Shown here: one piece after another, positions 6,222 to 33,450 of the stretch
How the letters are laid out: every line of letters starts with the position of its first letter
How positions within the stretch are numbered: position 1 is the stretch's first letter
DNA from: an uncultured Candidatus Saccharibacteria bacterium
GTDB taxonomy: Bacteria > Patescibacteriota > Saccharimonadia > CAILAD01 > JADZBC01
DNA length: 64,000 nt
Assembly (NCBI GenBank): GCA_964413715.1
Contig: CAYPSN010000004.1
Location: 7,501 to 71,500 of the forward strand
Direction of reading: 5' to 3'
Made by a program: the position numbers and the translations under genes
The notes under the pieces: model-generated
The model's input: the letters and a program-made list of their open reading frames with translations, nothing else
Told to the model about the DNA's origin: nothing
The model's database searches: none

Positions 6222-6287
6222 AACCACAAGCATTATTAATGGAGAAGTAAGGCGGCTTTTCTCCTAAAGCGTCCAGCACAAACAAAA

Positions 6288-9200
6288 ATGGCCGATAAAG
6301 CCAAAACACTACTACAAAAACTCCACCTCAAGCCTTCAACTACTTTGAAGGTGAGTAAGAGTGCAGTATTTATTCTGCTTGGACTCATTTCGATTCAGAC
6401 GGTAGCTGGCGGATTGCTGTGGTATGCCAAGAAGATCAGGGCCAGCGGTGGCATAGTGCAGACCTCTACACTTGTTGCAAGCATACCTGGCTCAAATGGG
6501 GCAGCGTTTGGTAATAGCGTCACGGTAGATGCTAGTGGCAATAAGTATGTTATGGAGTGGTTTAGTGGCATTATCCATAAATATAACAGCTCGGGCGTGC
6601 AGTTGGTGCAATGGGGTGGTAGAAGTAGCAACTTTCTAAATGAGTATGTCCAGGGACAGTTCTATACTGGTGAGTGGAGTTATGCGATAGCCGCCAGCCC
6701 ATCTGGCGATATTTATGCCACGAACGTAGACCATATAGAACGATTTACTAATACAGGTACTTCTGTGACAAGCTGGATCTTGCCGGACGGCTATAGAACT
6801 ATGGGCGGAATAACAGTGGACTCACTTGGCAACGTATACGTAGCCGCTGGACCAAATATCCAAGATCAGCAGTTCGCGCCAAATCAAATTATGAAGTTTG
6901 GCCCTAATGGTGGTGCGACATTGGCACGATGGGGAAGCACGGGCAGTGGGGATGGTCAGTTTTTCAACTCAAATCTATCCCTTGCGAGCCTTCAGCTAGC
7001 TACTGATAGTTCTAATAATGTTTATGTAGTCGACTCCGGGAATTATAGGGTTCAGAAGTTTAATTCAACAGGTAACTATATAGCGCAGTGGGGGTCGCAG
7101 GGGTCAAATGGAAATCAGTTTTTGGGCCCATTTGGAATTGTTGTTACGGCCGATAACAATGTGTACGTTCAAGATGTTGACCAAAATATAGCTGGTGCAC
7201 AGACCTTGAAGAAATTTACGTCATCAGGTCAATTTTTGGCCCAAGCAGCACTACCCAGCTCACAATCAAGTCTGCTTTATGCTCTGGCGAGTGATGGAGG
7301 TAAGTACTTTGTTGCAACAATTCTCGAACCGATTGATGGTAATACATCTGTCGCTAAACTTATCCGTTTGCAAGATACTCTTTCAATAGAGATCACGGCT
7401 AATTCCCTGCCAAATGGTGCGGTTGGCCAGGCCTATTCACAGCAGATTAACGTGGCCGATGCGCAGGGTGATGTTGCATATACAACAACTTCAGGTTCTT
7501 TGCCTGCTGGGCTAAGCCTGAATAGTTCTACTGGTGCGATTACTGGTACGCCGACTACAGCTGGAACATACTCATTTACCGTCCAGGCCGCTGACAATGA
7601 GGCGAGTGACACGCAGGCGTTTGTAATTGTGGTCGATGCTGTAGGTAGGCAGGTTACAACCTTGCAGGTTACAGCAACGAATGAGGATTCGGTAACTATG
7701 AAGGGCACTACGAACCTACCGAGCGATGTTTTACAAGCCGGATTTCAGTATGGCCTAGATACCAACTACGGCTCCAGCCTCTCTTATGATCCAGGTAATA
7801 ACTTTCAAAATTCTTTTTCTTATGAACGTCAAGCTGGCGGATACGGTTCAGGCAATGGTCAAATGAACCAGCCGCTCGATGTGGCGACTGATGCACTAGG
7901 AAAAGTCTACGTTGTGGACACCCAGAATAACAGAATCCAGACTTTTACCTTGTCGGGTGAGTACGTTGGGCAATGGGGTAGTGCAGGATCCGGAAACGGT
8001 CAGTTCAACACTCCTACTCATGTTACCGTTGGGCAAAATGGCAACATTTATGTACTAGATTACGGCAACCAGAGGGTGCAGGTATTTGACTCGTCAGGCG
8101 CCTACATTGCACAGTGGGGCGGGTATGGTTCGGGCAATGGGCAGTTCATCAATCCTCAAGGGGGTATTGATACCGACAGTCAGGGTAATGTGTATGTTGG
8201 AGATACAGCGAACAATCGGGTGCAGAAGTTTGACGCAGCAGGGCTGTATCTTGGGCAGTGGGCCGTTACCAACCCCAAAGGATTGGCCGTGAATTCGGTT
8301 GACAGCGTTTATGTATCCCAAGGAGGATACAATACAATTAGGAAGTTCAGTTCTACGGGCACCCCTCAAGGAGTTATTGGTGGCACAGGCGGTGGATTAT
8401 ATGGCGCTGGTTCGGCTAACGGTGAGTTTGATGGTGTGTACGGTATTGATATAGATCTCGATACAAATCGCATCTTTGCTGCTGACGAAGGGAACTCTCG
8501 AGTTCAGGTGCTTGATGCTGATGGGGTATATATAGCAAAGTTTGGCGCCGCTGGGGCAGGGAATGGCCAGTTTGGAAACGAACGACTAGAAGTCGCTGTT
8601 GCCCCAGATGGGACGGTATTTGTCTCGGACGCTGCGAATGATAGAGTTCAGAAATTTGCAGGACCAATACAAGTGTTCACTAACGGGCTAACTTGTAATA
8701 CAACATATCACTACCGCGCCTTTGCTACAGATACAAACGGGACTGTTTACGGAAATGATGCAGCATTTACAACAAATGCCTGCCCTGACGTCCCGATAAA
8801 TATTACGAATCTTACGCTGCAAGATGGTATGGAATTGGTTGAGTATCAAGACCTAATAAACGTCGAGAATGCCACTGGTCCCGTAGGGTATTATGTAACG
8901 AGCGGTGATCTACCTCCGGGCTTAAGCCTGAATGCGACTACGGGCTACATTAATGGTACGCCAACTACTGCCGGCACATATAATTTCGATGTGACAGTGA
9001 GTGATAGTAATTCTCAAGATATCGTTAATTACAATCTTACTATTTTGAACTACACACCTCCTTTGGAAATAACTACAGCGGCGCTTCCTGATGCACAGTT
9101 AGTGGACTACTCTTTGACGTATAACGAGTATGTATACACTGCGAATAATCAGGGGAACGTGCAGTTTAGTGTTGTGAGTGGCTCATTGCCTCCCGGTATG

Positions 9201-11474
9201 GCGCTTGATAGCGGTTCTACTTCCGCTCACTTGCTTGGATTTACGGGCATACCGGTCGCAGGCACCTATACATTTACTATTCAGGCGCAGGATGAAAGAG
9301 GGAACGGCATAGGAGGTACAGATACTCAGGAATACACCATTGTAGTACCATCTTTACCAAACATTAACATCACAACTACGACACTAGACAATGGTCGAGT
9401 AGGTATACCGTACAATAAGACTATTACCTACGAATGGTATGTGGATCAGCCCACCTTCTCTGTCATATCAGGCTCTTTACCCGATGGCATTTCCCTCACC
9501 CTCAATGGTTACCTTCAGGGTACCCCTACGCAAGTCGGTACTTACACATTCACAGTTCAGGCTGATGACGGTTTTAGCTCTGACACTCAAGAACTAACCT
9601 TAATCGTTGACCCCGCCCCTCCTGCAATCGTAAATACACCTTTCGTCACCATTACCTCACCATCATCTGGTGCTACCTTCACTGGAGGAACCAGTGTCAT
9701 AACAGGTACTGGTCCTGCTAACCAAACCATTGCCTTATTCGTAGACAGCAAGCAGATAGGCACAACCACTGCTAACTCACAGGGTATATGGAGCTACACG
9801 GCCCAAAATATTGCCACAGGCGAGCATACTCTAGATGCCAAATGGATTCCTGGATCAGAGATAATGTTTATTCCCGGCCTCGACCCCTCGGGGGACTTTG
9901 ATGTGCTGAAGGTGATTGACAGCGGCTCCGGAGCGATCGTTAAGACAATTACTCTTAATAACAATGGTTTTATCCCAATCAGTGCAACCTTGGCTAAAGA
10001 TGGTGGCAGTGTATTGGTTTCCGGCCTCAATCAATATTCGGGCAAAGCCGGCATTAAGAATGTTCGGCTAAGTGACATGTCGATAACTACCCTGGAATCA
10101 AATCAAGTAGGAAGAGTCTTCGAAGATGTCGTATTGTCTCCGAATGGTGATATCGGTTACGTCGTCGATGCGTCAATATTTAGTTTATCGGCTCAACTTA
10201 GGAAGTTTGACGTTAGTACTATGACGTTGGATGCCAGCTACGTTGATTTAGGCGACAAATTTAATGCCTCAACGTTGGTGGGCAATGGTCACTTCATTGT
10301 CTTGTCGGACGATGGAACGCAGCTAGCAGTAGCCAATACGGCAGGCGGAGCTAGTTTCACCGTGGTTAACACTAGTGATTTCTCAAGTCAGACAACCCCG
10401 CCAATTAGCCCCCAGGTAGGAGGGAATGGTGTAGTAATCACTGGATTTGATAGAAAAGGCAATACAGCTGTATTGTCACTTATGGACACTTTGGGTCCGT
10501 CGAATAACTACCTGACAGAAACTTCGAGAGTATTTGTCGTAAATACCGACACTCAAGCCGTGACAAGTATACCGACAGCTGGATCTGTCTGGCTGAGTCT
10601 ACACATACTAGGAAATGGTGCAACGTATTTGCAGGGTTTTGACAGTAATAATGCTATTGTTGGCAGACTCAATTCGGACAACGTCCTTACATCTACATCG
10701 GTTCCATTTGGTGATGTGGGTGCTTATGGCGGGTCGAGCCTTCGCTACCTCATTGGTTCCAATGCGTCTCAAGACAAACTGTATACGGCTCTAAGTGATT
10801 CTGATGGAGGTGGTGTGTATGCGAATGTTGTTGAGTGGAACATTACAGGGGCGACTCCTGCATTCGCTAAGCTAATTCGTTTGTCGGGCGTGGCGTCTTA
10901 TGCTGCAGGTTTTGACTTCCTTGGCAGCATTGTGCCGCCAAAAGACAGCATTACCTTTACAGTTCCCGGCTTGCCCAATGAAGATTGTACCAAGACCAAC
11001 ACCTGTGCATGTCAGCAATTAGGCACTTGCCCCAAGCCATGTGGCAGTGTTGGCGGAACTTGCCCTGTATCATGTACCGCTACCAACTCTTGTCCAGTCA
11101 CTACGACGACCGGCGGAAACACGACTATACCTAATATAATAAAGACACCGTTCCCATCTGATGCTGCGCCTACCACGAGTAGACTTGGTTGGTTTGATCG
11201 CAGCGTGTTGTCACTTGCACGCTTTATTCCTGAACAAGCTGCGATTGGCTTCCCATACCTGCTCTTTATCCTTCTGCTTATCTTTGCCTTATCTCTCTAC
11301 TATCAAAGTAGTAATGAGATCCGTAAAGATGCCTTAAACAAACAATTCCTCGCTAAACGTAAATCTATTCGTGCCCAGCAAGACAACTTCATAGCCCTGG
11401 CCTCACACTACATTAACACCCCCATCACCATCATCCAGGGTGGAGTAGAGAATGAGGGGAGGAAATCGAAATGA
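6288..11474 (+). CDS. Giant (1728 aa) two-TM cell-surface protein. Architecture: N-terminal signal-anchor TM, NHL-repeat beta-propellers, several Ig-like (He_PIG/cadherin-like) domains, a further propeller-like region, a Cys/Pro-rich stalk, a C-terminal TM, and a cytoplasmic tail bearing a HisKA H-box-like helix.
   Basis: TM1 'AVFILLGLISIQTVAGGLLWY'. NHL repeats such as 'VVDTQNNRIQTFTLSGEYVGQWGSAGSGNGQFNTP' and 'YVGDTANNRVQKFDAAGLY'. Ig-like 'SGSLPAGLSLNSSTGAITGTPTTAGTYSFTVQAAD'. Stalk 'CTKTNTCACQQLGTCPKPCGSVGGTCPVSCTATNSCP'. TM2 'FPYLLFILLLIFALSLYY'. Tail 'QDNFIALASHYINTPITIIQGG' compares closely with PhoR '[22 protein letters not shown]'. Confidence 0.8.
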   Translation: MADKAKTLLQKLHLKPSTTLKVSKSAVFILLGLISIQTVAGGLLWYAKKIRASGGIVQTSTLVASIPGSNGAAFGNSVTVDASGNKYVMEWFSGIIHKYNSSGVQLVQWGGRSSNFLNEYVQGQFYTGEWSYAIAASPSGDIYATNVDHIERFTNTGTSVTSWILPDGYRTMGGITVDSLGNVYVAAGPNIQDQQFAPNQIMKFGPNGGATLARWGSTGSGDGQFFNSNLSLASLQLATDSSNNVYVVDSGNYRVQKFNSTGNYIAQWGSQGSNGNQFLGPFGIVVTADNNVYVQDVDQNIAGAQTLKKFTSSGQFLAQAALPSSQSSLLYALASDGGKYFVATILEPIDGNTSVAKLIRLQDTLSIEITANSLPNGAVGQAYSQQINVADAQGDVAYTTTSGSLPAGLSLNSSTGAITGTPTTAGTYSFTVQAADNEASDTQAFVIVVDAVGRQVTTLQVTATNEDSVTMKGTTNLPSDVLQAGFQYGLDTNYGSSLSYDPGNNFQNSFSYERQAGGYGSGNGQMNQPLDVATDALGKVYVVDTQNNRIQTFTLSGEYVGQWGSAGSGNGQFNTPTHVTVGQNGNIYVLDYGNQRVQVFDSSGAYIAQWGGYGSGNGQFINPQGGIDTDSQGNVYVGDTANNRVQKFDAAGLYLGQWAVTNPKGLAVNSVDSVYVSQGGYNTIRKFSSTGTPQGVIGGTGGGLYGAGSANGEFDGVYGIDIDLDTNRIFAADEGNSRVQVLDADGVYIAKFGAAGAGNGQFGNERLEVAVAPDGTVFVSDAANDRVQKFAGPIQVFTNGLTCNTTYHYRAFATDTNGTVYGNDAAFTTNACPDVPINITNLTLQDGMELVEYQDLINVENATGPVGYYVTSGDLPPGLSLNATTGYINGTPTTAGTYNFDVTVSDSNSQDIVNYNLTILNYTPPLEITTAALPDAQLVDYSLTYNEYVYTANNQGNVQFSVVSGSLPPGMALDSGSTSAHLLGFTGIPVAGTYTFTIQAQDERGNGIGGTDTQEYTIVVPSLPNINITTTTLDNGRVGIPYNKTITYEWYVDQPTFSVISGSLPDGISLTLNGYLQGTPTQVGTYTFTVQADDGFSSDTQELTLIVDPAPPAIVNTPFVTITSPSSGATFTGGTSVITGTGPANQTIALFVDSKQIGTTTANSQGIWSYTAQNIATGEHTLDAKWIPGSEIMFIPGLDPSGDFDVLKVIDSGSGAIVKTITLNNNGFIPISATLAKDGGSVLVSGLNQYSGKAGIKNVRLSDMSITTLESNQVGRVFEDVVLSPNGDIGYVVDASIFSLSAQLRKFDVSTMTLDASYVDLGDKFNASTLVGNGHFIVLSDDGTQLAVANTAGGASFTVVNTSDFSSQTTPPISPQVGGNGVVITGFDRKGNTAVLSLMDTLGPSNNYLTETSRVFVVNTDTQAVTSIPTAGSVWLSLHILGNGATYLQGFDSNNAIVGRLNSDNVLTSTSVPFGDVGAYGGSSLRYLIGSNASQDKLYTALSDSDGGGVYANVVEWNITGATPAFAKLIRLSGVASYAAGFDFLGSIVPPKDSITFTVPGLPNEDCTKTNTCACQQLGTCPKPCGSVGGTCPVSCTATNSCPVTTTTGGNTTIPNIIKTPFPSDAAPTTSRLGWFDRSVLSLARFIPEQAAIGFPYLLFILLLIFALSLYYQSSNEIRKDALNKQFLAKRKSIRAQQDNFIALASHYINTPITIIQGGVENEGRKSK

Positions 11475-11755
11475 CCCTTATGCTCGCTCACATAGCTATG
11501 GTGGAGTACACTCTAGGCAGGAGTAGTATCATGAAGTTAAGAATCTTAACCCTGGCTTTATTGTTAGCGGCCTATGGCTATTACCTGCAAGGCACAAAAG
11601 CAGCAATTGACAGTCAAATAAGTAAAATTTCTGCTATGTATTCGCAGGCTGCAATGTTTTCGCCTGCGACCGGCCAAGTCGATGAAAATGCGGATGTGAG
11701 TATAAAAAGTGATCATTCTCTTTCAGGTGTATATAGGGAGGATGTAGGGCGATGA
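11471..11755 (+). CDS. Small hypothetical protein with an N-terminal hydrophobic segment. Possibly the remnant of the kinase gene that follows the paralog.
   Basis: ATGA overlap with the giant gene stop and with the HIT gene start. 'MKLRILTLALLLAAYGYY' is hydrophobic. Its 5' nucleotides loosely align with the 5' end of 33450..34721. Confidence 0.3.
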   Translation: MTLMLAHIAMVEYTLGRSSIMKLRILTLALLLAAYGYYLQGTKAAIDSQISKISAMYSQAAMFSPATGQVDENADVSIKSDHSLSGVYREDVGR

Positions 11756-12171
11756 GTCAAAGTATTTTTTCACGCATAATTAGCGGTGAAGAGCCGGGCG
11801 AAATAGTGTACGAAGACAGTCTGCACGCCATTTTGCTCAGTCGCGCGCCGCAGCGGCCGGGTCATAGTTTGGTTGTGCCGAAACGCGAAGTTACACGGTT
11901 TTATGAAATGGACAGCGAGGCGTATATATCAATGATGCAGCTCGTGCGCGCGTATGCTCAACGACTGAATGAAATTTACAAGCCCAAGGTAGTTGCACTG
12001 GAGGTGATGGGCTTGGGTGTCGATCACGTCCATGTTCACGTCGTGCCAATAGAGGACGAACATGACCTGGATCAGGATAGGGCAAAGTTCGTGGGCTTAG
12101 AAATAATTCGCCCGGAAGGCAAGAAGATCCGTTCATACCTTGCTCAGCACCCGCTTAGAGAGCTACAATAA
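11752..12171 (+). CDS. HIT family (histidine triad) nucleotide hydrolase
   Basis: Histidine triad 'GVDHVHVHVVP' (HxHxHxx), 139 aa. Confidence 0.8.
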   Translation: MSQSIFSRIISGEEPGEIVYEDSLHAILLSRAPQRPGHSLVVPKREVTRFYEMDSEAYISMMQLVRAYAQRLNEIYKPKVVALEVMGLGVDHVHVHVVPIEDEHDLDQDRAKFVGLEIIRPEGKKIRSYLAQHPLRELQ

Positions 12172-12176
12172 CTATT

Positions 12177-12962
12177 ATGCTTATCGTTCTATTACTTTCC
12201 GTCGTGCAGGGGATTAGTGAATTTTTGCCTATCTCGTCTTCTGCTCATTTGCTAGTTGTGCCTTGGCTTTTTAACCTACAAGATTTAGGCCTTACATTCG
12301 ATGCAGCCATTCACATCGGTACAGCAATAGCGCTTTTATTATTTTTCTACAAAGATTTCTGGCGACTTGTTAAGGAGAAAAACCCCTTGCTCTGGTACAT
12401 TGTAGTGGCTTCGGTGCCGGCAGCACTCTTTGGATTCCTCGGTGATAAATGGATTGAATCTGTCTTGCACGAAAGCTCGATAGCACCGCTTGTGGTTGGT
12501 TTGGGCATGATTTTGTTCAGCTTTTTGCTGCTTTACATCGACAACACGGCCAAGCTAGAGCACACAAGCAAAGACATAACGCTCAAGGATACGTTAATCA
12601 TTGGGTTTGCACAGGCTTTAGCATTGATTCCGGGTACATCACGATCAGGAATTACTATGACTGCCGGATTATGGCGCGGGCTAAAGCGCGAAGATGCTGC
12701 ACGGTTTAGCTTCTTGCTGGCTGCACCAATTAGCCTCGGCGCAGGACTATATAAAACCCTTGGATTGGTTAAAAATCCTAACCCAGATCTGTCTATTTTA
12801 CAGCTTGTGGTTGGCATCGTCGCGTCCTGCTTGGTGGGCTTGGCTGTCATACGGTGGCTGATACGCTATGTTGGTTCACATAATTTGCGTCTTTTTGTGG
12901 TTTATCGGGTAGCATTTGGCGTAATCGTGATCGCCATATGGCTATGGCGGGCTGTTCTATGA
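12177..12962 (+). CDS. uppP: Undecaprenyl-diphosphate phosphatase
   Basis: N-terminal 'GISEFLPISSSAHL' is the UppP/BacA signature. Polytopic, 261 aa. Confidence 0.85.
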   Translation: MLIVLLLSVVQGISEFLPISSSAHLLVVPWLFNLQDLGLTFDAAIHIGTAIALLLFFYKDFWRLVKEKNPLLWYIVVASVPAALFGFLGDKWIESVLHESSIAPLVVGLGMILFSFLLLYIDNTAKLEHTSKDITLKDTLIIGFAQALALIPGTSRSGITMTAGLWRGLKREDAARFSFLLAAPISLGAGLYKTLGLVKNPNPDLSILQLVVGIVASCLVGLAVIRWLIRYVGSHNLRLFVVYRVAFGVIVIAIWLWRAVL

Positions 12963-13378
12963 AGCTACCAGCCGAAATTAAGGTTTTTTGCGACGGTGGT
13001 TCACGCGGTAATCCAGGACCAGCAGCAGCAGGCGTAGTAATAACTACAACAGATGATAAAGTCTTGCTCGAAGTAAATAAATACTTAGGTATACGTACAA
13101 ATAATTACGCAGAGTATCAAGCGGTTATATTGGCGCTTGAGACAATTTTCGAGCATGGAGTCGAGCAGGCTAATTTTTACCTGGACAGCGAGCTGGTTAC
13201 GAAGCAGCTCAACGGCGAATACCGCGTGAAGCACCCCGACATGCAGCCACTTTACCTTCGGGTGCAAGAGCTTGTGGGCGTGGTGGGGGCTCACAAAGTG
13301 CGTTTTGTCCACGTGCGTAGAGAGTTTAATAAGCTCGCCGATGCACAGGTCAATAAGTGTCTCGACGAGCAGATTTAG
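12959..13378 (+). CDS. rnhA: Ribonuclease HI
   Basis: 'IKVFCDGGSRGNPGPAAAGVVI...NNYAEYQAVILAL' carries the RNase H catalytic D/E motifs. The start is chosen at the ATG overlapping the uppP stop (ATGA). Confidence 0.8.
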   Translation: MKLPAEIKVFCDGGSRGNPGPAAAGVVITTTDDKVLLEVNKYLGIRTNNYAEYQAVILALETIFEHGVEQANFYLDSELVTKQLNGEYRVKHPDMQPLYLRVQELVGVVGAHKVRFVHVRREFNKLADAQVNKCLDEQI

Positions 13379-13381
13379 ACG

Positions 13382-13410
13382 TCGACAAATAGGCCATATT
13401 ATGGTAGAAT
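13382..13410 (+). promoter_or_regulatory. Putative promoter of RNase P RNA: -35 TCGACA, 17 nt spacer, extended -10 TGgTAGAAT
   Basis: tcgaca at 13382-13387; tggtagaat at 13402-13410. Confidence 0.4.
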
Positions 13411-13417
13411 ATTGATC

Positions 13418-13850
13418 TAGCTAGTTAATGTGCGATCGCTCCCTTCCGAGGGAGAGGAAAGTCCGAACAGCATAGAGCAGAGTGGTTGCTAACGGCAACC
13501 GGGGGCAACCCTAGGGAAAGTGCCACAGAGACAATACCGCCCCTCACCATTTTGTATAGTTACTGGTTATAGACTTGTTCTGAGCGTAAGTGTATGAAAT
13601 GGTGAGGGGTAAGGGTGAAAAGAGTGCGGTAAAAGCGCACAGCATGCGTGGGTGACCACGTGTGGAGGTAAACCCCACTTGCTGCAAGACTATGGGCCCA
13701 GCCATTTGGCAGAGCTGCTCGCTCTTTATGGGTTTGTCGCACGATCTGCCTTTACCGGCAGACGCGGGCGTTGTTATGACGCATGAGATAGATGATCGCT
13801 AGCTTCTTTATCGAAGCAAAACAGAATTCGGCTTATACGTTATCTAGCTA
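13418..13850 (+). ncRNA. rnpB: RNase P RNA (bacterial type)
   Basis: 5' P4 strand 'GAGGAAAGTCCGaac' at about 13454-13468. Conserved core 'CATAGAGCAGAGTGGTTGCTAACGGCAACCGGGGGCAACCCTAGGGAAAGTGCCACAGAGACAATACCGCC' (compare E. coli M1 'CAUAGGGCAGGUGCCAGGUAACGCCUGGGGGGGAAACCCACGACCAGUGCAACAGAGAGCAAACCGCC'). 3' P4 strand 'ACAGAATTCGGCTTAT' at 13821-13836 pairs with the 5' strand and leaves the conserved bulged U. No protein ORF is present; the minus-strand ORF 13560..13742 is spurious. Confidence 0.85.
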
Positions 13851-13857
13851 GGCAAAG

Positions 13858-13890
13858 TGCCCAACCCTAATAGGAGTGTTGGGCTTTTTG
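13858..13890 (+). terminator. Rho-independent terminator after rnpB
   Basis: 'gcccaac cctaataggagt gttgggc ttttt'. Confidence 0.6.
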
Positions 13891-22634: not shown

Positions 22635-22639
22635 AAAAA

Positions 22640-25090: not shown

Positions 25091-26247
25091 GGCAGGAGTT
25101 TCTTATAAATTGCTTCGTAGGTGTCGAACATGACGTCGGTAGAGTGGCTGGTTTGGACAATTTTTAGACTTTCTTTGCCAAACGATGTTCTTTTTACATC
25201 ATCTCTCAACAGGTCAATAAGCCGTTTTGCCAGCTCTTGATGTTGGTTTTCGCTAAATAAATAGCCATTTTCGCCATCATGCACAAGTTCTTTAAGGGCC
25301 GCTACGTCAACTGCGACAACAGGGCGAGCTGTCGCCATGGCTTCTAGCGTAACAATGCTCTGAAGCTCTGCCGGTGAGCTAATCACGAAGATGTCGCATA
25401 GGTTATAAAACAATGGCTTGTCGCTTTCATCGATGTAGCCCGTGAAGGTTACCGACTTTTCGATACGCAGTGACTTGGTAAGCTTTTTTAGGTTATCCAT
25501 TTCTTTGCCGAAGCCAACAATCATCAGGTGGCACTTGTTGTTCTTCAGTACCTCTGGCATGGCGCGTAGAATGATGTCGATTCGCTTCTCGCCATCCACT
25601 CTGCCTAAGTAGAGTAATACTGGCAGGTTTGGTAGGCCATATTTCTTCTTCAAAGCTGAAGCGTCCAGGCCTGGTTTGAACACACCCAGGTCTATGCCGT
25701 TACTGACCGGTTGCAAAGGTTTTGTAACACCGAATTTTTCTAGAAATTCGGTTGCCGTTGGGGTGGGTGAGGTGACAAAATCACAGCGATTATGGAACCA
25801 GACCAAGTACTTCCAGACGATCTTGTAGAGAGCGGCATACAAAAACTTTGTCCACTTCAGATTGAGCAAGATGTTTTCGGGCATTAAGTGGTTTGTAGCA
25901 ACAATAGGTATGCCATGCTTGCGGGCGTAGCGTTGCGCAGTCAGGCCGAGAAGGCCGGGGTTGTGAATGTGGATTACATCTGGTTTAGTCGCCTTGAAAA
26001 TCTTCTTGGTATGCATTGCTGGCCAAAAGCTAACCTTGTACTTACGGTTAAATATCAGCGTTATGGCTCGTTCGCGATAGATCGTAGTTTTACCATCCGG
26101 TTCGGTGTAGTTGGAGAAGTTCTTGGCTGGAGCCCAAATCGACACCTTATGACCCTTGTCGGCTAGACCAAGCGCCAGGCGTCGCTCAAACAAAGCACCG
26201 CCGTCTGCATTGGGCCAGTATGATTCGGTTACGAGCAGGATGTTCAT
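25087..26247 (-). CDS. Glycosyltransferase family 4
   Basis: 'MNILLVTESYWPNADGGALF' and 'SPAELQSIVTLEAMATARPVVA'. Its start overlaps the upstream GT4 gene, suggesting an operon. Confidence 0.75.
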   Translation of the reverse strand: MNILLVTESYWPNADGGALFERRLALGLADKGHKVSIWAPAKNFSNYTEPDGKTTIYRERAITLIFNRKYKVSFWPAMHTKKIFKATKPDVIHIHNPGLLGLTAQRYARKHGIPIVATNHLMPENILLNLKWTKFLYAALYKIVWKYLVWFHNRCDFVTSPTPTATEFLEKFGVTKPLQPVSNGIDLGVFKPGLDASALKKKYGLPNLPVLLYLGRVDGEKRIDIILRAMPEVLKNNKCHLMIVGFGKEMDNLKKLTKSLRIEKSVTFTGYIDESDKPLFYNLCDIFVISSPAELQSIVTLEAMATARPVVAVDVAALKELVHDGENGYLFSENQHQELAKRLIDLLRDDVKRTSFGKESLKIVQTSHSTDVMFDTYEAIYKKLLP

Positions 26248-26327
26248 AATGATTATTATGGCTGTTTTCGAGGCATCTGCCTAGTCTTTATGACACTAAA
26301 ACACTAGCGTTTTAGCTTAAAATAAGG

Positions 26328-26333
26328 TATAAT
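26328..26333 (+). promoter_or_regulatory. -10 element (TATAAT) positioned 9 nt upstream of the tmRNA 5' end
   Basis: 'aaataaggTATAATtgtgttatGGGGCTG'. Confidence 0.35.
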
Positions 26334-26341
26334 TGTGTTAT

Positions 26342-26729
26342 GGGGCTGATCAGCTTCGACGTTGGAATCTTGAAATATAACTGCAGGTCGCCTAATCGAC
26401 GTTACAGATTAAACCCAATAAGTGTAAACACACTCGTTAGCAAAGTAAAAGCTGCTTTTCGCATGCCAAGCTTTGCGCCAGCTTTCGCTTAATTGATGAA
26501 AGCCGTTTTCGTAGCTGACGTCAGATACGCTACAAGACGTCACTTTATCTGACTGCCTAATGGTCGTTCTGTCCGATTGTTGTTAAGACAAAGAACAGAA
26601 AAGTGTTGCGTGCGTTTCGCTTACTTATAGCGCGCAAACCTTTTGAAACAAAGCTCAAGTAAGCTAAGCCTGTAGTAGGTTATATAGATGGACTAGCGGA
26701 CCAGGGTGCGATTCCCTGCAGCTCCACCA
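26342..26729 (+). ncRNA. ssrA: tmRNA (SsrA)
   Basis: 5' end 'GGGGCTGATCAGCTTCGACGTTGG' matches the tmRNA 5' consensus (E. coli GGGGCUGAUUCUGGAUUCGACGGG). 3' end has T-arm 'cAGGGtgcgattCCCTg', acceptor strand 'CAGCTCC', then A-CCA. The 7 bp acceptor stem includes the G3:U70 alanine identity pair. Candidate tag ORF '(A)AFRMPSFAPAFA' ends at TAA 26490-26492. The structure is bracketed by a promoter and a terminator and contains no long ORF. Confidence 0.8.
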
Positions 26730-26744
26730 GTAATTTTCTATAAA

Positions 26745-26776
26745 AGACCCCCTAAGCTTCCGTGGGGGTCTTTTAT
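26745..26776. terminator. Strong rho-independent terminator after ssrA (potentially bidirectional)
   Basis: 'aaaagaccccc taagcttccgt gggggtctttt'. Confidence 0.6.
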
Positions 26777-26887
26777 ATTTGTATTTGTAATGTAGAAATT
26801 ACAACATGCATTAACAGGTTGGGGGCGTGAAAAATTGGGATCGAATATGAATTGTGTTCAATTAGCAGAAAATGATAATTTTTCTCC

Positions 26888-26916
26888 TGGACTTATCCTG
26901 TTGGGAAGGCTAAAAT
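26888..26916 (+). promoter_or_regulatory. Putative promoter of giant gene 2 (-10 TAAAAT), placing the TSS at the conserved leader 'aagcattattaa'
   Basis: Read directly. Position relative to the conserved leader is the same as in paralog 1. Confidence 0.35.
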
Positions 26917-26994
26917 ATACATAAGCATTATTAACAGGGAATAGATGGTGGCTTTTCTCCTGTAAAAGAGATACCATCAAAAACAAAACAACCC

Positions 26995-29900
26995 ATGGCC
27001 GATAAAGCCAAATTATTACTACAAAGATTCCATCTCAAACCTTCTACTACCCTGAAGGTGAGTAAAGGTGCGGTTTTTGTACTCCTTGCCATGATTTCTA
27101 TTCAGACCGTAGCGGGCGGCTTATTGTGGTATGCAAAGCAAATCAGGGCGGCGAGTGGCCTGCAACATGTGAAGAGCTACGCTGAAGGTGATGGGTCGGG
27201 TAAAATTATCGCGGCTGATAGTCAAAATAACTTTTACGTTTTTGACTTAAGTGATTATGTAGTTAAGAAATATGATGCTGGCGGCAACTTACTTGGTCAA
27301 GTAGGTGCTTCGGGGAGCGACCCAGGGCAGTATGCAAATGTAAGCGGCATGGCAACCGATAGCTCAGGCAACCTATATGTTTTAGATTCTGGCAACAATC
27401 GAGTTATCAAGTATAGTTCAAATGGTAGCTACAGCGGCACTAGTTGGGGGAGTTATGGTACGGGGGATGGTGAATTTGGCTCGTTGGGGTCAATTGCGAT
27501 TAGCTCCGCTGATGACATCTATATAGTCGATGCAGGCAACAGTCGCATCCAGAGGTTTAATTCTTCTGGTGGTTTTGTAAATAAGTGGGGTTCGGCAGGC
27601 TCTGGCGCAGGGCAGTTTAATTACCCATACGGGATTACCACCGATTCTACAGGTTCGGTATATGTGTCGGAAGGTTTTTCTGGTCGTGTGCAGAAGTTTG
27701 GTGCAGCTGGGGGGGCACCTACGGCCACTTGGACGCCAGGAGGGTGGGGTGGTTATATGGCGCGTGGCCCAGGAGATGTAATTTATGTAACTAGCTTGGG
27801 TGGCCTCGTAATAAGGAGTTATAATACCAGCGGAATCTTGCAGAACAGTTGGGGAGGAAGTGGCGGTGGTGCCGGAACATTTAGCGGTCCGTACCTCGAT
27901 GGGACCCTAGCCCTAGATACGTCTGGGAATGTTTACGTGGCTGATTATGGTAATGCGCATATCCAAAAGTTCACTGCTGCAGGATCATATGTAGGTGTCT
28001 ATATTGGTCGTGGTAAGGCAAGCGGCGTGCAGGATGTGGCAACAGACGGTTCTGGTGGTAACATTTACCAGGTAGGCAATGGCTACCTGCGTAAGATTCG
28101 GCGTTCTGATGGTAAGCTAGTCTTCTCTACAAGCATTACAGGGAGTTCTGTAGATGTATCTCCTGACGGCAACTATGTATATGTACTTGCCTCAGGCTGG
28201 GCTGATCCAAATGCACGGGTTACAAAGCTTACATCTTCAGGCACAGTGGTGACACAATGGGGTACTTTTGGTGAGGCAGAAAACCAGTTCAAGGGGGCAG
28301 AGGCACTTGCCGTTGGTGAAGATGGCAGCGTGTATGTGGCGGACACAGCCAACCACCGTATTCAAAAGTTCGATGCGAACGGAAGCTTCTTGCTCATGTG
28401 GGGCTGGGGTGTTCAAAATGGCACAGCTGAGTTTCAAACCTGCACTTCTGGCTGTCAAACTGGTATAGCAGGTAACGGCGACGGGCAATTCGACATGACC
28501 GACTGGTATGGTACAGGCCCCAACCGAGGCCTCGATGTCGACAGCCAAGGGAACGTTTATGTAGCGGACATGCATAACGCCCGAATCCAAAAATTCAGTT
28601 CTACAGGGTCATTTTTTGGTAAATGGGGTTCATTTAGTGATGCCCAGGGCGGCTTTAAATATCCCTATGCCATATCAATTGATTCTCAAGATAATATTTA
28701 CGTATCTTGTATTCTTGGGGCGGGTGAGCGGATTCAGCGCTTTAATTCAAATATGCAGTTTGTGTCAGAATTTACAACAGCAGGTAATTTAGTCCTTTCT
28801 AACCCTCAGGGGATTGCCGTTGATGAACAAGGCCACTTATATGTAGCAGACACTTCAAACAATCGAATCCAGCAATTTAAATACAATTTCTGGTTATCAA
28901 TATCTAATACAGGAGGCGGTGATGGCGTGACCGGCCAGCCATACACAAGCACAGTAGGTATAGACGATCCTCAGGGTCCCACAACGTTCACTGTGACGAG
29001 CGGTAGTTTGCCGCCCGGCCTCTCCCTCAATAGTTCGACCGGCGTAATTAGTGGTACCCCTACTTTGGCTGGCCAGTATACCTCATATATAACCGTCAGT
29101 GATGGCCAGACTTCTGCAGTTACACCAGGCACTACAATTACGATTACTGACCCTCCTCCTGCACCACTCGCGTTTTCTTCTGCTCCGCTGCCCCATGCAA
29201 GAGTTGGCCGCTCGTACTCCCAGCACGTCGACTTAAACAATGTAGTGGGGACGGCGCATTATGAATTAATCAATGCACAACCTTGGAATTCTGGCCTCAG
29301 CTTTAATCCTCAGACGGGGATGATTACTGGAACACCTAATTCAAACAGTCCTACAGTGAGGTTCTCCTTGGAAGCATATGACGATAGATGGTGGGTTACA
29401 AGCACTACAGTCACCGTCACTATAGAATCCGCACATACTGTTACAACGCTGCCAGCCACAGGTTTAGAGGATACAATTACGGGCATAAAGGCGGTTTTAA
29501 ATGGTGCCACCAACTATCCGGACGAGATAACAAATCGAGGTTTTGAATATGGCCTCGATACGAATTATGGCAATACAGTTGTTGATAATACAGCAAATTC
29601 TAGCTACAAAGCTGCTCAGACTTGGAATACAGTTGCGAGCGGCACCACCATGTCAAATGCCAATGAGAGTATGACAATGGATGCAGGTGGGAATAGTTAT
29701 ATCGTCGATTCGTTTAATAGTCGTATACTCAAGTATTCTAAGACCGGCGTTCTTCTCGCAACTTGGGGGTCAGCAGGAACGGGACAAGTAGAATTTAACG
29801 CCCCAGCTGATATTGCTATTGGACCGAGTGGCAACTTCTACGTGGTCGATGCAGGCAATAATCGAGTGCAAATTTTAAACTCATCTGGGTTGTATGTTGG

Positions 29901-32900
29901 TGAATTCGCCCTGCCTTCAGAGGGAGGGAAAGCTATTGCAGTAGACTCGCAAGAGCACATCTACGTAAGTGGCGATGAGTGGAGTGGGCCTTGGTACTTG
30001 AGGGAGGGCAGGCCATATATCCGAAAATATGATTCTCAAGGCAACTTGCTACTAGATTGGGGCACGGAAGGTACCGGAGACTCTCAGTTTAGGGTGACTG
30101 CTCCGCATGATCTTGCTATTGATGGCAATGATGATCTGTATGCTGCAGACATGTATAACAATAGCGTTAAGAAATTCGATAGCAATGGTAGTTTTATCTT
30201 GAAGATTGGCGGAATGGGCCCATATATATATGGAGCAGGTCAGAGTAATGGGGAGTTTGATCATCCCGCCTCATTGGCTGTTGATGCGAATAACAATGTA
30301 TTTGTAGGTGACTATAGCTGGAGAATTCAAAAGTTTGGCATCTCTGGTGTATTTAAATCCAGCTCGCATATTGCAAATGGTGGCTTGTCTTTTGATGTGG
30401 ATGCTGAAGAGAATCTCTTTGTGGCTACTTGGGGTAATCCAAATCAACTTATCAAATATTCCTCAGGTATTGAATCCGCTATCTCAGGCCTAGTATGTGG
30501 CAACACTTATCACTACCGTGCCTTTGCAACAAGCACTGATGGTACGAAATATGGTGACGATGAAGTATTTACAACAGACGCTTGTCCTGACACTCCAATT
30601 TCAATAACGACGTCCTCCCTCTCTACAGGGTATGTGGGGCAGAATTATAGCGAGATCATTAATGTCACTGGTGCTACTGGAAACGTATCATATTTCCTAT
30701 CAGGCGGATCGGACTACCTGCCCTCTGGTTTAAGCTTGGACCCAAACACAGGTGTTATCTCCGGCAACCCGCAAGCCTCTGGAACCGCCAACATTTGTAT
30801 CCGGGCAATGGACGACAACTCGGATGACTTGAGGTGTTGGGATTTAACCATACAGAATATCGTTCCACAGCTAGAAATTACGACCCCGTTATTGCCGGAT
30901 GCCACCCTGTCTGGTATGCAATACGATTACTACAATTCGAACATTTATGTGCAGGGTGCTATAACTAACGACGTTGCGTTTACAGTAGTTAGCGGTGAAT
31001 TGCCTCCCGGACTTAGCCTCCAAGACAACACTTATTATGCAGCTATAATTGGCACTCCAACACAGGCCGGAGTATATACGTTCACAGTCGAGGCAAACGA
31101 TGGCTGGAGAGGATCACCTGGGTTTGCGTGGCAAGAATATACTATTGTTGTTCCTCCTACTTCACTTCCTAGTCTCTATATTGATACCACTTCACTCAGC
31201 AATGGCCTTGTAGGTATCCCATATAATTCCACTATTTACTATCAAGATGCTCAATCTCAACCTGTCTTCTCTCTTGTTTCCGGCTCGTTGCCACCAGGTA
31301 TTTCTTTAAGCCTGGAAGGCTACCTCCAGGGTACACCTACTGAGGCTGGCACCTACACCTTCACAGTCCAAGTTGACGATGGCTTTAGCAGTGACACCCA
31401 AGAACTCACCTTGACTATAGCCCCGCCTCCACTGCCTATAGTAAACACCCCATTCGTAACCATTACCTCACCAACTACAGGATCTACCTTTGCCGGTGGA
31501 ACAAGCGTTATAACTGGTACTGGTCCTGCCAATCAGACTATTACTATCTTCGTAGATAACCAGCAAATAGGTACTACCGCTGCCAACTCTGAAGGAATAT
31601 GGACGTATACTGCACAGAACATTGCAGCCGGTAGCCACAACTTGGACGCCAAGTGGGTGCCGGGAGCAGAGGTGATGTTTAGAACCTCTCTGGACTTTGC
31701 TGCTCTCACTACAAAGCTGACAGTTTACGACACGGCGACTGACACTGTAGTCAAAGAGTTGGCGTTGCCCCCATACGCATTTGCATGGGGCGCGTATGTT
31801 CCGCCTCAAGGTCAAAAAATTGTGGCCTATGGTATAGATGCGAGTTCTACATTCGGGACTTACTGGCAAATAGATCTAAATTCTGGCGCCATCACTACTA
31901 TTTCTACTGGCAGTACCGTTTATCCCAATGACATGGCAGCTAACAGAGATACTATGTTTACATCGGTAGCTGGCGGACTTTTTGCGACTCGGGTGTCAGA
32001 TGGCTCCTCACTTGGTCCGATTAATCTTGGCATCCCTTCAGAGCTGAACATTCCTTTTAACTTACAGCTCTCTGAAGACGGTACACGACTTTACGCCTAC
32101 TCGGGTATCGTAACTGGTTTGCCTTCTTTCCTTTCATACTCAAATAATTGGCTCGAGCAAGCCCTGCCATACATGGGGAAGATATTCGTCATTAATACGT
32201 CTGACCTGAGTGTTATTAGTAGTTATAATACAATTGATAATACTAATTGGCAGACAGAAGGGTATGAAGTTCCATTTGGGTTTGCCTATGCCAATGGAGT
32301 CGCATATGTGCCATCTGGAAGTTATCCTGCGACTCAAACCCCTCCTGACTTTGAGGTAGAAACTAATTTCAAGGCATATTCCTTGTCAAGTGGCGCATTA
32401 TTATACAGTCACAATATCTCTGCTGATTACCCGCAGGATGATATCCTTGCAGGGGGGGGTTACATCGATTCTACTCGCGGCAATGTATTCTTTAAGACTA
32501 TTAGTATTGATAATGACCAGTCAGTGCTTAAACCTGGCCTTGCTCGATGGAATTTAGTAAGTAATTCGGTCGATCAATACACGGTTGTATCTGATCAGAT
32601 TCAAGAAGGGCAGGATAACGCCTCCCTGGCCGACATGTATCTATTGAACTTTTTGAGTTGGGGTATGGATGGGGGGGGAAATAATGAGCGCTTGTATCTT
32701 ACAGGTCTAGGGGGCAATTATACTGGCGTTACTTACGCATTCTCACTTTCTAATAATCAATTTGTAGAGGGTAGCGGCTATCCGCTTACACACGGCACAC
32801 CTGGTAGTTCCATTGCATACCAATTTGGCCCCAACTTCATCGGTCCTATCACCCCACCTAAGGACAGTATGGCCTTCTCTGTACCATCGACTCCTGAGCC

Positions 32901-33450
32901 TCCCGCCTGCCAGCAACAGGGCAATTGCCCTCCAGTAGACTGTAATGCAACCAATACCTGTCCTAAGCCCTGTACTCTGACGAGTGGCACCTGCCCCCAG
33001 CCATGTACTGCCACCAACTCATGTCCTCAGCCTCCACTAACAGACTGTACCACCACCAACTCCTGCCCTGGTACTACTACCACCGGTGGCACTACAACCA
33101 CTCCTACCATTATCTCCACACCATTCCCTCCAGCCTCCAAGGCTACACCCACGAACTCACGCCTGGGTTGGTTTGACCGTAGCGTCCTCTCGCTTGCACG
33201 CTTTATCCCCGAGCAAGCTGCCATTGGCTTCCCATATCTCTTGTTTATGCTTCTGCTTGTCTTTGCTTTATCTCTCTATTACCAGAGTAGTAATGAAATA
33301 CGCAAAGATGCCTTAAACAAACAGTTCCTCGCTAAACGTAAATCTATTCGTGCCCAACAGGACAACTTCATAGCTCTAGCCTCGCACTACCTCAACACTC
33401 CTATCACCATCATCCAGGGCGGAGTAGAGAATGAGGAGAGGAAACGTTGA
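26995..33450 (+). CDS. Giant (2151 aa) two-TM cell-surface protein paralogous to 6288..11474. Same architecture: TM, NHL propellers, Ig-like domains, Cys/Pro stalk, TM, HisKA H-box tail.
   Basis: Near-identical N-terminus ('MADKAKLLLQRFHLKPSTTLKVSKGAVFVLLAMISIQTVAGGLLWYAKQIRA'). NHL repeats ('LDSGNNRVIKYSSNGSY', 'VADTANHRIQKFDANGSF', 'ADMHNARIQKFSSTGSF'). Ig-like 'SGSLPPGLSLNSSTGVISGTPTLAGQY'. Stalk 'CPKPCTLTSGTCPQPCTATNSCPQPPLTDCTTTNSCP'. TM2 'FPYLLFMLLLVFALSLYY'. Tail 'QDNFIALASHYLNTPITIIQGGVENEERKR*'. Confidence 0.8.
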   Translation: MADKAKLLLQRFHLKPSTTLKVSKGAVFVLLAMISIQTVAGGLLWYAKQIRAASGLQHVKSYAEGDGSGKIIAADSQNNFYVFDLSDYVVKKYDAGGNLLGQVGASGSDPGQYANVSGMATDSSGNLYVLDSGNNRVIKYSSNGSYSGTSWGSYGTGDGEFGSLGSIAISSADDIYIVDAGNSRIQRFNSSGGFVNKWGSAGSGAGQFNYPYGITTDSTGSVYVSEGFSGRVQKFGAAGGAPTATWTPGGWGGYMARGPGDVIYVTSLGGLVIRSYNTSGILQNSWGGSGGGAGTFSGPYLDGTLALDTSGNVYVADYGNAHIQKFTAAGSYVGVYIGRGKASGVQDVATDGSGGNIYQVGNGYLRKIRRSDGKLVFSTSITGSSVDVSPDGNYVYVLASGWADPNARVTKLTSSGTVVTQWGTFGEAENQFKGAEALAVGEDGSVYVADTANHRIQKFDANGSFLLMWGWGVQNGTAEFQTCTSGCQTGIAGNGDGQFDMTDWYGTGPNRGLDVDSQGNVYVADMHNARIQKFSSTGSFFGKWGSFSDAQGGFKYPYAISIDSQDNIYVSCILGAGERIQRFNSNMQFVSEFTTAGNLVLSNPQGIAVDEQGHLYVADTSNNRIQQFKYNFWLSISNTGGGDGVTGQPYTSTVGIDDPQGPTTFTVTSGSLPPGLSLNSSTGVISGTPTLAGQYTSYITVSDGQTSAVTPGTTITITDPPPAPLAFSSAPLPHARVGRSYSQHVDLNNVVGTAHYELINAQPWNSGLSFNPQTGMITGTPNSNSPTVRFSLEAYDDRWWVTSTTVTVTIESAHTVTTLPATGLEDTITGIKAVLNGATNYPDEITNRGFEYGLDTNYGNTVVDNTANSSYKAAQTWNTVASGTTMSNANESMTMDAGGNSYIVDSFNSRILKYSKTGVLLATWGSAGTGQVEFNAPADIAIGPSGNFYVVDAGNNRVQILNSSGLYVGEFALPSEGGKAIAVDSQEHIYVSGDEWSGPWYLREGRPYIRKYDSQGNLLLDWGTEGTGDSQFRVTAPHDLAIDGNDDLYAADMYNNSVKKFDSNGSFILKIGGMGPYIYGAGQSNGEFDHPASLAVDANNNVFVGDYSWRIQKFGISGVFKSSSHIANGGLSFDVDAEENLFVATWGNPNQLIKYSSGIESAISGLVCGNTYHYRAFATSTDGTKYGDDEVFTTDACPDTPISITTSSLSTGYVGQNYSEIINVTGATGNVSYFLSGGSDYLPSGLSLDPNTGVISGNPQASGTANICIRAMDDNSDDLRCWDLTIQNIVPQLEITTPLLPDATLSGMQYDYYNSNIYVQGAITNDVAFTVVSGELPPGLSLQDNTYYAAIIGTPTQAGVYTFTVEANDGWRGSPGFAWQEYTIVVPPTSLPSLYIDTTSLSNGLVGIPYNSTIYYQDAQSQPVFSLVSGSLPPGISLSLEGYLQGTPTEAGTYTFTVQVDDGFSSDTQELTLTIAPPPLPIVNTPFVTITSPTTGSTFAGGTSVITGTGPANQTITIFVDNQQIGTTAANSEGIWTYTAQNIAAGSHNLDAKWVPGAEVMFRTSLDFAALTTKLTVYDTATDTVVKELALPPYAFAWGAYVPPQGQKIVAYGIDASSTFGTYWQIDLNSGAITTISTGSTVYPNDMAANRDTMFTSVAGGLFATRVSDGSSLGPINLGIPSELNIPFNLQLSEDGTRLYAYSGIVTGLPSFLSYSNNWLEQALPYMGKIFVINTSDLSVISSYNTIDNTNWQTEGYEVPFGFAYANGVAYVPSGSYPATQTPPDFEVETNFKAYSLSSGALLYSHNISADYPQDDILAGGGYIDSTRGNVFFKTISIDNDQSVLKPGLARWNLVSNSVDQYTVVSDQIQEGQDNASLADMYLLNFLSWGMDGGGNNERLYLTGLGGNYTGVTYAFSLSNNQFVEGSGYPLTHGTPGSSIAYQFGPNFIGPITPPKDSMAFSVPSTPEPPACQQQGNCPPVDCNATNTCPKPCTLTSGTCPQPCTATNSCPQPPLTDCTTTNSCPGTTTTGGTTTTPTIISTPFPPASKATPTNSRLGWFDRSVLSLARFIPEQAAIGFPYLLFMLLLVFALSLYYQSSNEIRKDALNKQFLAKRKSIRAQQDNFIALASHYLNTPITIIQGGVENEERKR

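Follow-up and report, generated by a model that had tools for sequence, protein, structure and literature searches.

Why should two giant genes of one bacterium be closely similar at both ends and at one place in between, and so different elsewhere? The question is raised by genes A and B of an uncultured Candidatus Saccharibacteria bacterium, which lie on the same strand of a 64,000-nucleotide (nt) stretch of its genome (assembly GCA_964413715.1, contig CAYPSN010000004.1, positions 7,501 to 71,500, forward strand), from herein called the window. An original prediction for this locus held that modules are shuffled or converted such that the membrane and signalling ends stay constant while a ligand-binding ectodomain diversifies. 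The overall explanation that we consider probable is purifying selection together with recurrent recombination, combined with a functional model, which we infer, of a histidine kinase split between two proteins. The two genes are:

6288-11474, + strand: gene A, 1728 amino acids (aa); Pfam NHL (E 4e-31) and He_PIG (E 6e-37); hydropathy
26995-33450, + strand: gene B, 2151 aa; Pfam NHL (E 1e-62) and He_PIG (E 6e-31)

Block structure of the gene pair

According to the list of open reading frames (ORFs) and their translation, the products of A and B are the largest proteins encoded within the window. The sequence of gene B is identical in an independent assembly (L021; contigs and loci are referred to by L numbers). 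From the N-terminus, the A protein consists of an N-peptide, a first transmembrane segment (TM1), NHL propellers, an array of He_PIG immunoglobulin-like (Ig) domains, a Big_7-like Ig domain, a membrane-proximal propeller-like domain (MPD), a Cys-rich stalk, a second transmembrane segment (TM2) and an H-box helix, after which it stops. The order in B is the same, but its NHL blades are more numerous. Pfam scores of A and B, at 105.9 and 205.1 bits for NHL (cut-off 20) and 126.4 and 107.2 bits for He_PIG (cut-off 24), exceed the gathering cut-offs, as for surface proteins with NHL-repeat beta-propellers and He_PIG Ig domains, and hydropathy predicts a two-pass membrane topology for both.

Searching the window against itself (blastn, E ≤ 1e-6) returned exactly three repeated DNA blocks, every one of them shared between A and B:

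6216-6442 versus 26911-27149, + strand: block i, leader and N-terminus (76% over 239 nt, blastn)
9455-9870 versus 31266-31681, + strand: block ii, Ig-like middle module (72% over 417 nt, blastn)
11073-11465 versus 33046-33444, + strand: block iii, tail with TM2 and H-box (80% over 399 nt, blastn)

These are the blocks that had been predicted, although each is somewhat shorter than claimed, and the identity of 80-90% expected by eye applies to the proteins and not to the DNA (72-80%). A fourth, weaker patch of 87 nt (8703-8789 versus 30505-30591, 72%) is seen when the two loci are compared by blastn, and no third copy of any A or B module was found within the window. Protein identity between A and B is 82% over aa 1-45, 75-85% between A 1066-1190 and B 1434-1555, and 81-97% over the last ~130 aa (A 1600-1728, B ~2030-2151). 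The pairwise alignment with sliding-window identity that had been proposed as a check gives 78-97% at the protein level in the blocks, compared with 15-60% elsewhere. Variance of identity across 50-column windows is 0.041, whereas in 2000 shuffles of the columns it averaged 0.0048 and never exceeded 0.0137; divergence is thus not uniform along the genes, and the block structure is real and far above chance.

Distribution of the family

The family is very rare: a search for relatives in 1.84 billion protein representatives, about 185,000 species genomes and metagenomes of the Joint Genome Institute (JGI) yielded some 20 distinct loci or proteins, about 15 of them with a close tail and the remainder being distant fused forms. 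Seven close loci came from the scan of one genome per species, in metagenome-assembled genomes (MAGs) of Saccharibacteria/Patescibacteria, which bears out the epibiont-like organism that had been predicted. No family member was found in the first metagenome scan, and the second gave distant fused relatives only. A word-indexed search of 5.8 billion proteins, with the tail, MPD and middle block as queries, returned two tail fragments and otherwise generic He_PIG proteins; the word index apparently misses giant proteins, though the collection contains them. Literature searches found no description of these giant proteins in Saccharibacteria, and the family has probably been overlooked so far.

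Two relatives, MAG_140 and CAYTBW, encode two copies each, one A-type and one B-type by synteny. In the A-type arrangement the tail is followed by a small ORF, HIT and BacA, and in the B-type arrangement by an overlapping HATPase_c gene. The more distant relatives are single polypeptides (L009, L013/L014 and L015-L017). L014 is a fused form at a BacA-linked (A-type) locus, and L009 appears to be a fused form at a B-type locus, as judged from its neighbours. Fused giant kinases of about 1000-2150 aa are encoded at L009:4991-11329, L014:4850-11293, L015:8291-11341 and L017:5429-11257, and one contig (Ga0154020_10001663) carries two such genes.

Gene conversion of the tail

Trees of the He_PIG array group the sequences by locus, with 100% support for an A clade and 99% for a B clade. 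The tail groups by genome instead. In both DNA and protein trees of the tail, the A and B genes of the window cluster together with 100% bootstrap support, and MAG_140 B groups with the A genes of MAG_140 and CAYTBW (95.5%), leaving CAYTBW B outside. Quartet sites in the tail favour grouping by genome over grouping by locus, 17:2:4 when all sites are counted and 6:1:3 when only synonymous third positions are. The proportion of synonymous differences (pS, Nei-Gojobori) between the A and B tails is 0.49, as against saturation at 0.77-0.86 elsewhere in the gene. In the tail core, the window paralogues have a pS of 0.49 and a proportion of non-synonymous differences (pN) of 0.028, compared with 0.61-0.66 and 0.10-0.16 for orthologues. 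Paralogue tails in MAG_140 are closer still (pS 0.27), and the tract there begins at the stalk and gives way to B-type sequence ~10 nt ahead of the stop codon.

In the tail, then, paralogues are closer to each other than orthologues are, synonymous divergence is lowered within the tract, and neighbouring parts of the gene follow the locus tree. Because the tail clusters by genome and not by locus in two Saccharibacteria lineages, we attribute its similarity to gene conversion. The tree and substitution patterns indicate conversion of the tail in the window genome and a more recent event in MAG_140, where the leader and N-terminus also appear to have been homogenised. Conversion of the conserved ends, as originally proposed, is thus upheld by phylogenetic incongruence for the tail and also for the leader and N-terminus of MAG_140; the middle block does not call for it.

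The shared leader and N-terminal block

Block i consists of a non-coding and a coding part:

6216-6287, + strand: shared -10 region and 5' leader of gene A (blastn; alignment with four relatives)
26911-26994, + strand: shared -10 region and 5' leader of gene B (blastn)
6288-6442, + strand: coding part of block i in gene A, with the cytoplasmic motif LHLKPSTTLKVSK and TM1 (nt 6351-6428; hydropathy)

The strings AAGCATTATTAA, GGCTTTTCTCCT and ATGGCCGATAAAGCCAAA, cited earlier as common to the two leaders, are present in both, and no further copies of the leader motifs were found within the window. Upstream of gene B is a promoter-like TGGACT-17-TAAAAT (26888-26916), and the gene A leader has AAGCATTATT at the likely start site and a weak hairpin, GGAGAA..TTCTCC. 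Neither leader (6224-6287 and 26919-26994) has a Shine-Dalgarno sequence ahead of the ATG, and a CA-rich tract stands in its place. The leader hairpin is 9 bp long with three covarying pairs among five sequences. The leader was rejected as a structured RNA, with no Rfam match and folding z-scores of ~0, and we regard it as a putative shared promoter-proximal leader.

Both proteins begin with a short Lys-rich N-peptide followed by TM1 (aa ~25-47). The coding part of the block is 85% identical between A and B at the aa level, with a pS of 0.56. Given this value, conversion of the N block in the window genome is possible, although inseparable from constraint. In MAG_140, identity between A and B is 100% in the leader and 91% over the first 50 codons. 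Contigs from several assemblies (L004:1, L005:1 and the ends of L025-L030) begin or end at the leader or first codons of a giant gene, which suggests that repeats or strain heterogeneity interrupt assembly there.

The middle block and the stalk

Between the N-terminal block and the tail, the following ectodomain parts are of note:

9455-9870, + strand: block ii of A, last He_PIG repeat and Big_7/Big_3_5-like Ig domain (blastn, Pfam)
31266-31681, + strand: block ii of B, He_PIG and Big_7-like Ig domain (blastn, Pfam)
10986-11093, + strand: Cys-rich stalk of A, with 8 of the protein's 10 Cys and tandem C-x-x-T-N-T/S-C-P units

The Big_7 match in block ii is weak (E 1.4e-4, under the Pfam cut-off). 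A and B are 78% identical here at the aa level, with a saturated pS of 0.77 (Nei-Gojobori) and identity at 20 of 59 fourfold sites. Identity is 74-82% in all paralogue and orthologue pairs alike, and the tree is star-like and unresolved. Since pS is saturated and paralogues are no closer than orthologues, purifying selection suffices for this block and conversion need not be invoked; the substitution pattern thus argues that the middle block is conserved by purifying selection. The synonymous/non-synonymous comparison that had been suggested as a check therefore detects lowered divergence in the tail (pS 0.49) and not in the middle block.

The stalk (10986-11093 in A; 32908-33066 in B) consists of C-x-x-T-N-(T/S)-C-P-x-P units in tandem, which are 24-nt repeats at the DNA level. 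Their copy number differs among paralogues and genomes; the stalk of A has about 8 Cys and that of B about 10.

The membrane-proximal domain and exchange of ectodomain segments

9852-10980, + strand: MPD of A, hypervariable cassette (20-44% identity in every pair)
31666-32904, + strand: MPD of B (only two true homologues among 1.84 billion representatives)

The MPD, of ~380-410 aa, lies between the Big_7-like Ig domain and the stalk and has no match in Pfam or NCBIfam. A profile of seven MPDs searched against PDB returned almost exclusively beta-propellers (RACK1 best, E 2.7e-5; YncE; quinohemoprotein amine dehydrogenase), and it is on account of this search that the domain is assigned as a propeller. 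An AlphaFold2 model of the B MPD from a two-sequence alignment was unusable, with a predicted local distance difference test (pLDDT) score of 32. The two true homologues of the B MPD in the exhaustive search of protein representatives are P0003 and P0004. A strain contig (L022) that is 99.2% identical to the window covers 3.8 kb of gene B (29631-33450) and differs there by four events, two non-synonymous single-nucleotide polymorphisms and two 3-nt indels. All four alter the protein and all four lie in the MPD; the probability that four random events along 3.8 kb would do so is ~0.01. In the NHL propellers, B orthologues show 70-90% conservation. The sequence comparisons thus point to the MPD, rather than the NHL propellers, as the main hot spot of diversification, and the predicted diversified ectodomain stands for the former and not for the latter.

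Larger changes are seen between genomes. The A genes of CAYTBW and MAG_140, which have an average nucleotide identity (ANI) of ~90%, are 92-100% identical in the NHL and He_PIG part, down to 63-77% in the DNA of the Ig domain, and without detectable DNA similarity in the MPD (41% at the aa level). In the tail they are back to 85-93% (99% at the protein level), and the flanks of the cassette are 92% and 90% identical. We interpret the two genes as differing by replacement of the MPD cassette.

The second case is the A locus of a sister species. There, the HIT/BacA flank matches the window at 88% identity and the upstream flank, as far as codon 43 of gene A, at 93-94%, but the gene at the locus (L031/L032, recovered as the same gene by two assemblers from two samples, ERZ27282915 and ERZ17987007) is only 42% identical to A of the window. 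Residues 1-310 of its product are 83-90% identical to A of MAG_140 and CAYTBW, residues 314-510 are 84-94% identical to B of MAG_140, the MPD is closest to MAG_140 B, and the stalk and tail are of the MAG_140/CAYTBW type. This mosaic identifies the gene as a chimera of A-type and B-type segments. As its 5' part is 82% DNA-identical to MAG_140 A, versus 69% for the flanking genes, transfer between lineages is indicated. Module shuffling, as predicted, thus finds examples in both the chimera and the replaced cassette. Saccharibacteria are naturally competent (PMC10633639), and a ComM-like gene is located between A and B; together these make a plausible route for DNA exchange.

A proposed histidine kinase in two parts

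The tails and the gene that follows B are:

11073-11465, + strand: block iii of A, tail with TM2 (nt 11223-11315) and H-box helix DNFIALASHYINTPITIIQ (blastn, 80%)
33046-33444, + strand: block iii of B, tail with TM2 (nt 33205-33285) and H-box (blastn, profile, hydropathy)
33450-34721, + strand: B-ds, kinase subunit gene, 423 aa (Pfam HATPase_c, E 1.8e-18)

The cytoplasmic tail helix of A and B ends in DNFIALASHY(I/L)NTPITIIQ. That this is the H-box of histidine kinases, as predicted, is borne out by PDB, Pfam and NCBIfam profiles. Most of the top 20 PDB matches to a profile of the tail are dimerisation and histidine phosphotransfer (DHp) domains of histidine kinases (HK853, EnvZ, SrrB) aligned at the phospho-His, the best being HK853 (E 0.008). 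Weak matches at the H-box are also given by the PhoR and PnpS models of NCBIfam, and in the fused relative L009 this motif is hit by Pfam HisKA (E 3e-5, 24.3 bits, just below the cut-off of 26.9). Both tails carry a HisKA-type H-box with its His on DHp helix 1, and the putative phospho-acceptors are H1707 of A (nt 11406-11408) and H2131 of B (nt 33385-33387). All close members of the family that have a tail, A-only lineages too, share the H-box NFIALASHY.NTPITIIQ and its His without variation. A complete DHp plus HATPase_c is found within neither polypeptide, as both end 10-11 residues after the H-box (11 in A). We interpret A and B as sensor subunits of a histidine kinase and not as complete kinases.

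In the B-ds product, a helical N-terminal part and two TM segments are followed by a helical region that lacks a conserved His and by a HATPase_c domain with N, G1, F and G2 boxes. Its ATG overlaps the TGA of gene B by one base (TGATG), as also in MAG_140 and CAYTBW, and conservation of this junction in three genomes suggests co-expression of B and B-ds. UGA read-through fusing the two was rejected, given two consecutive in-frame TGA codons and the different frame of B-ds. A virtual fusion of the B tail and B-ds is collinear with the fused L009, L014, L015 and L017, and the sole conserved His lies in the tail. Against the NCBIfam PhoR model, the B tail occupies positions 107-137 and B-ds positions 156-333. 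The fused relatives carry, in one polypeptide and in an unusual order, the ectodomain, TM2, H-box DHp, two TM segments, the His-less helical region and HATPase_c, and both HisKA and HATPase_c are detected in L009. B has the His without an ATPase, and B-ds the ATPase without an acceptor His. Given the collinearity with fused proteins, B and B-ds may be seen as an ancestral giant histidine kinase that has become divided between two proteins. Gene A is truncated at the same point as B, and nothing equivalent to B-ds was found 3' of it. The small ORF after A (11531-11755) was considered as a relic of a kinase gene and rejected, having no similarity to the C-termini of fused kinases.

A model for the pair, and competing explanations

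We propose that A and B would be old paralogues. Their family, which is rare and belongs to Saccharibacteria, would consist of giant membrane sensors of two passes that descend from giant sensor histidine kinases. Purifying selection would maintain the membrane and signalling core, presumed to be formed by the N-peptide, TM1, TM2 and the H-box helix, as well as the Ig-like module that precedes the last ectodomain domain. Intragenomic gene conversion would homogenise the tail in the window genome; in a relative, it would do so for the leader and N-terminus as well as the tail. Segments of the ectodomain would move between the two loci and alleles be replaced between lineages, with the MPD as the hot spot of diversification. 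In functional terms, B and B-ds would constitute a split histidine kinase in which B-ds phosphorylates the tail His in trans. A, without a kinase part of its own, may use the same B-ds, so that conversion of its tail would be tolerated or favoured, and the A tail would be kept matched to that of B for both sensors to dock on one kinase subunit. The MPD, and perhaps further parts of the ectodomain, may bind a variable ligand on a partner cell. A bolder form of the model would be a modular system, in which A and B are interchangeable acceptor-helix sensors sharing B-ds, conversion keeps their tails compatible, and transformation with inter-paralogue recombination swaps propeller cassettes that recognise the host or partner; we consider this form possible, though doubtful.

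Several observations weigh against selection combined with recombination and a split kinase. Conversion of the tail in the window genome is old (dS about 0.8), and the signal from synonymous sites by themselves, at 6:1:3 informative sites, is modest. In the N block of the window genome, identity between paralogues (79-80%) is no higher than between orthologues. Relatives are MAGs or metagenome contigs throughout, for which chimeric assembly at conserved blocks is conceivable, and both MAG_140 contigs begin within the shared leader. As for the functional model, no match to Response_reg was found among the scanned ORFs of at least 150 aa in the window (the last two ORFs, at 61982-63910, and smaller ORFs being outside the scan), and the genomes of L006 and L007 (JAYRIB01, CAZRJR01) showed an A-type locus alone, with no kinase gene close to it, which makes obligate use of B-ds hard to reconcile, unless those MAGs are incomplete.

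If there had been no recombination, the blocks would be the most constrained parts of ancient paralogues and the genome-specific residues of the tail would have arisen by parallel co-evolution with a partner. This suits the middle block, with its saturated pS and star-like tree, and the N block of the window, where identity is at the orthologue level, and synonymous support for conversion of the window tail is just 6:1:3. However, the DNA tree of the tail follows genomes with 100% bootstrap support, and both pS and pN of paralogues are below the orthologue values. MAG_140 has paralogue tails 93% identical, identical non-coding leaders and a sharp 3' end to the tract, and neither the L031 chimera nor a gene that is closer between genomes than its flanks can result from constraint. 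We therefore hold an explanation by constraint to be improbable. It is very improbable that the apparent conversions and chimeras were created by errors of metagenome assembly or binning at shared repeats. The two MAG_140 contigs do begin in about 126 identical nt of leader, several assemblies do break at the 5' end of gene A, and the L031 crossover is close to a conserved patch; but the B region of the window is reproduced at 100% and 99.2% by independent assemblies, the chimera was recovered by two assemblers from two samples, and the converted tails are internal to contigs and 90-93% rather than 100% identical, so they are not collapsed repeats.

The remaining alternatives concern function and the source of variation. 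The giant proteins may be adhesins or surface-layer-like anchors, with a vestigial H-box tail and ends conserved for membrane insertion or anchoring. NHL, He_PIG and Ig modules are typical of adhesins, multiple adhesins are needed for epibiotic growth of Saccharibacteria (PMC10633639), A lacks a kinase domain, two genomes show an A-type gene only, and a nearby response regulator was not found among the scanned ORFs. Nevertheless, the acceptor His is invariant even in A-only lineages, the pN of the tail is very low, and three genomes conserve the TGATG split together with a B-ds whose N, G1, F and G2 boxes are intact, which leaves an adhesin without signalling function unlikely. Targeted mutagenesis by a diversity-generating retroelement, or antigenic variation from silent cassettes, would account for the four protein-altering differences of L022 in the MPD. 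Yet the window has no reverse transcriptase of the retroelement type (the sole RVT_3 match is an RNase H) and no template repeat or silent cassette, its repeats being the three A/B blocks only. Divergence moreover extends over about 400 aa at 20-44% identity with indels, unlike adenine-specific variation, and we give such a mechanism hardly any credence. Recombination and purifying selection in a pair of kinase-linked sensors remain our preferred explanation.

Neighbouring genes and other features of the window

6090-6165, + strand: tRNA-Pro(GGG), immediately 5' of gene A (ARAGORN, Rfam; synteny preserved in L006 and L007 by alignment)
26342-26729, + strand: tmRNA gene, immediately 5' of gene B (ARAGORN, Rfam)
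11531-11755, + strand: small membrane protein 3' of gene A, with an N-terminal TM segment (..AYGYYLQ..) and a helix (conserved)
34795-35133, + strand: ORF of 112 aa 3' of the kinase subunit gene
38796-40901, - strand: unannotated ORF of 701 aa
49160-52009, + strand: phenylalanyl-tRNA synthetase beta chain

Both giant genes sit just 3' of a structured RNA gene, a classic type of site for island insertion. An integrative island was considered and rejected, as the ends of the RNA genes have no att-like direct repeats and the scanned ORFs include no integrase. The small membrane protein is present after every A-type gene (L001, L003, L004, L006 and L007); it matches no family and does not resemble the kinase subunit. 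The 112-aa ORF has no family match and was called in all independent assemblies of the locus (L018-L024). The tRNA synthetase chain carries an NlpC/P60 (and C92-like) peptidase domain inserted at aa ~459-608. The 701-aa ORF has no Pfam match, and in strain contig L022, otherwise 99.9% identical, 73 of 82 differences lie within its positions 38986-40053. This local divergence of ~7% marks it as a further gene that is hypervariable or has recombined.

Comparison with known systems and significance

Adhesin paralogues of Helicobacter pylori, bab (babA/babB/babC) and hom, undergo intragenomic recombination and gene conversion that lead to chimeras and concerted evolution (PMC3444412, PMC4552749, PMC2795765). 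Like A and B, they are surface-receptor paralogues at separate loci with conserved 5' and 3' ends and divergent middles, and we regard the concerted evolution of A and B as a variant of this process. The Helicobacter proteins are beta-barrels of the outer membrane, whereas A and B would be two-pass proteins of the inner membrane, of 1700-2150 aa and with an H-box tail. Conversion in the window genome is also old, one internal block appears to be kept by selection alone, and exchange takes place between lineages too.

For the kinase, the nearest precedents are CheA3/CheA4 of Rhodobacter sphaeroides and predicted split kinases, with the His and the ATP-binding domain on two proteins that need to form a complex (PMC3591291, PMC6829392). 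The conserved His on the sensor tail and the HATPase_c domain on B-ds would be alike in this respect. CheA3 and CheA4 are of the CheA/Hpt type; B and B-ds are of the HisKA/DHp type, are split within DHp just after helix 1, and are both membrane proteins, and the second sensor, A, has the His helix only. With HK853, EnvZ and PhoR, A and B share the order of TM1, extracytoplasmic sensor, TM2 and H-box helix, and the H-boxes align. In contrast to these kinases, the ectodomain is 1600-2000 aa rather than about 150, the polypeptide stops after DHp helix 1, and the fused relatives have two extra TM segments and a helical region between DHp and the ATPase domain. Hybrid two-component sensors of Bacteroides carry large periplasmic beta-propeller/Y_Y_Y and Ig-like sensing domains on a histidine kinase. 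A has a weak Y_Y_Y match (E 3e-5, under the Pfam cut-off), but A and B are without a fused receiver or AraC output domain and their propellers are of the NHL type.

Little is known of the means by which ultrasmall epibiotic Patescibacteria recognise their host cells and respond to them, and this gene pair is a concrete candidate. A and B are predicted to be exposed at the surface and tied to a histidine-kinase output. Variation of the MPD between 99%-identical strains, and its replacement between close species, is as expected of a recognition surface under diversifying selection. A split kinase with a second, kinase-less sensor would be an unusual signalling architecture. As Saccharibacteria are genetically tractable through natural competence, this architecture is open to direct test.

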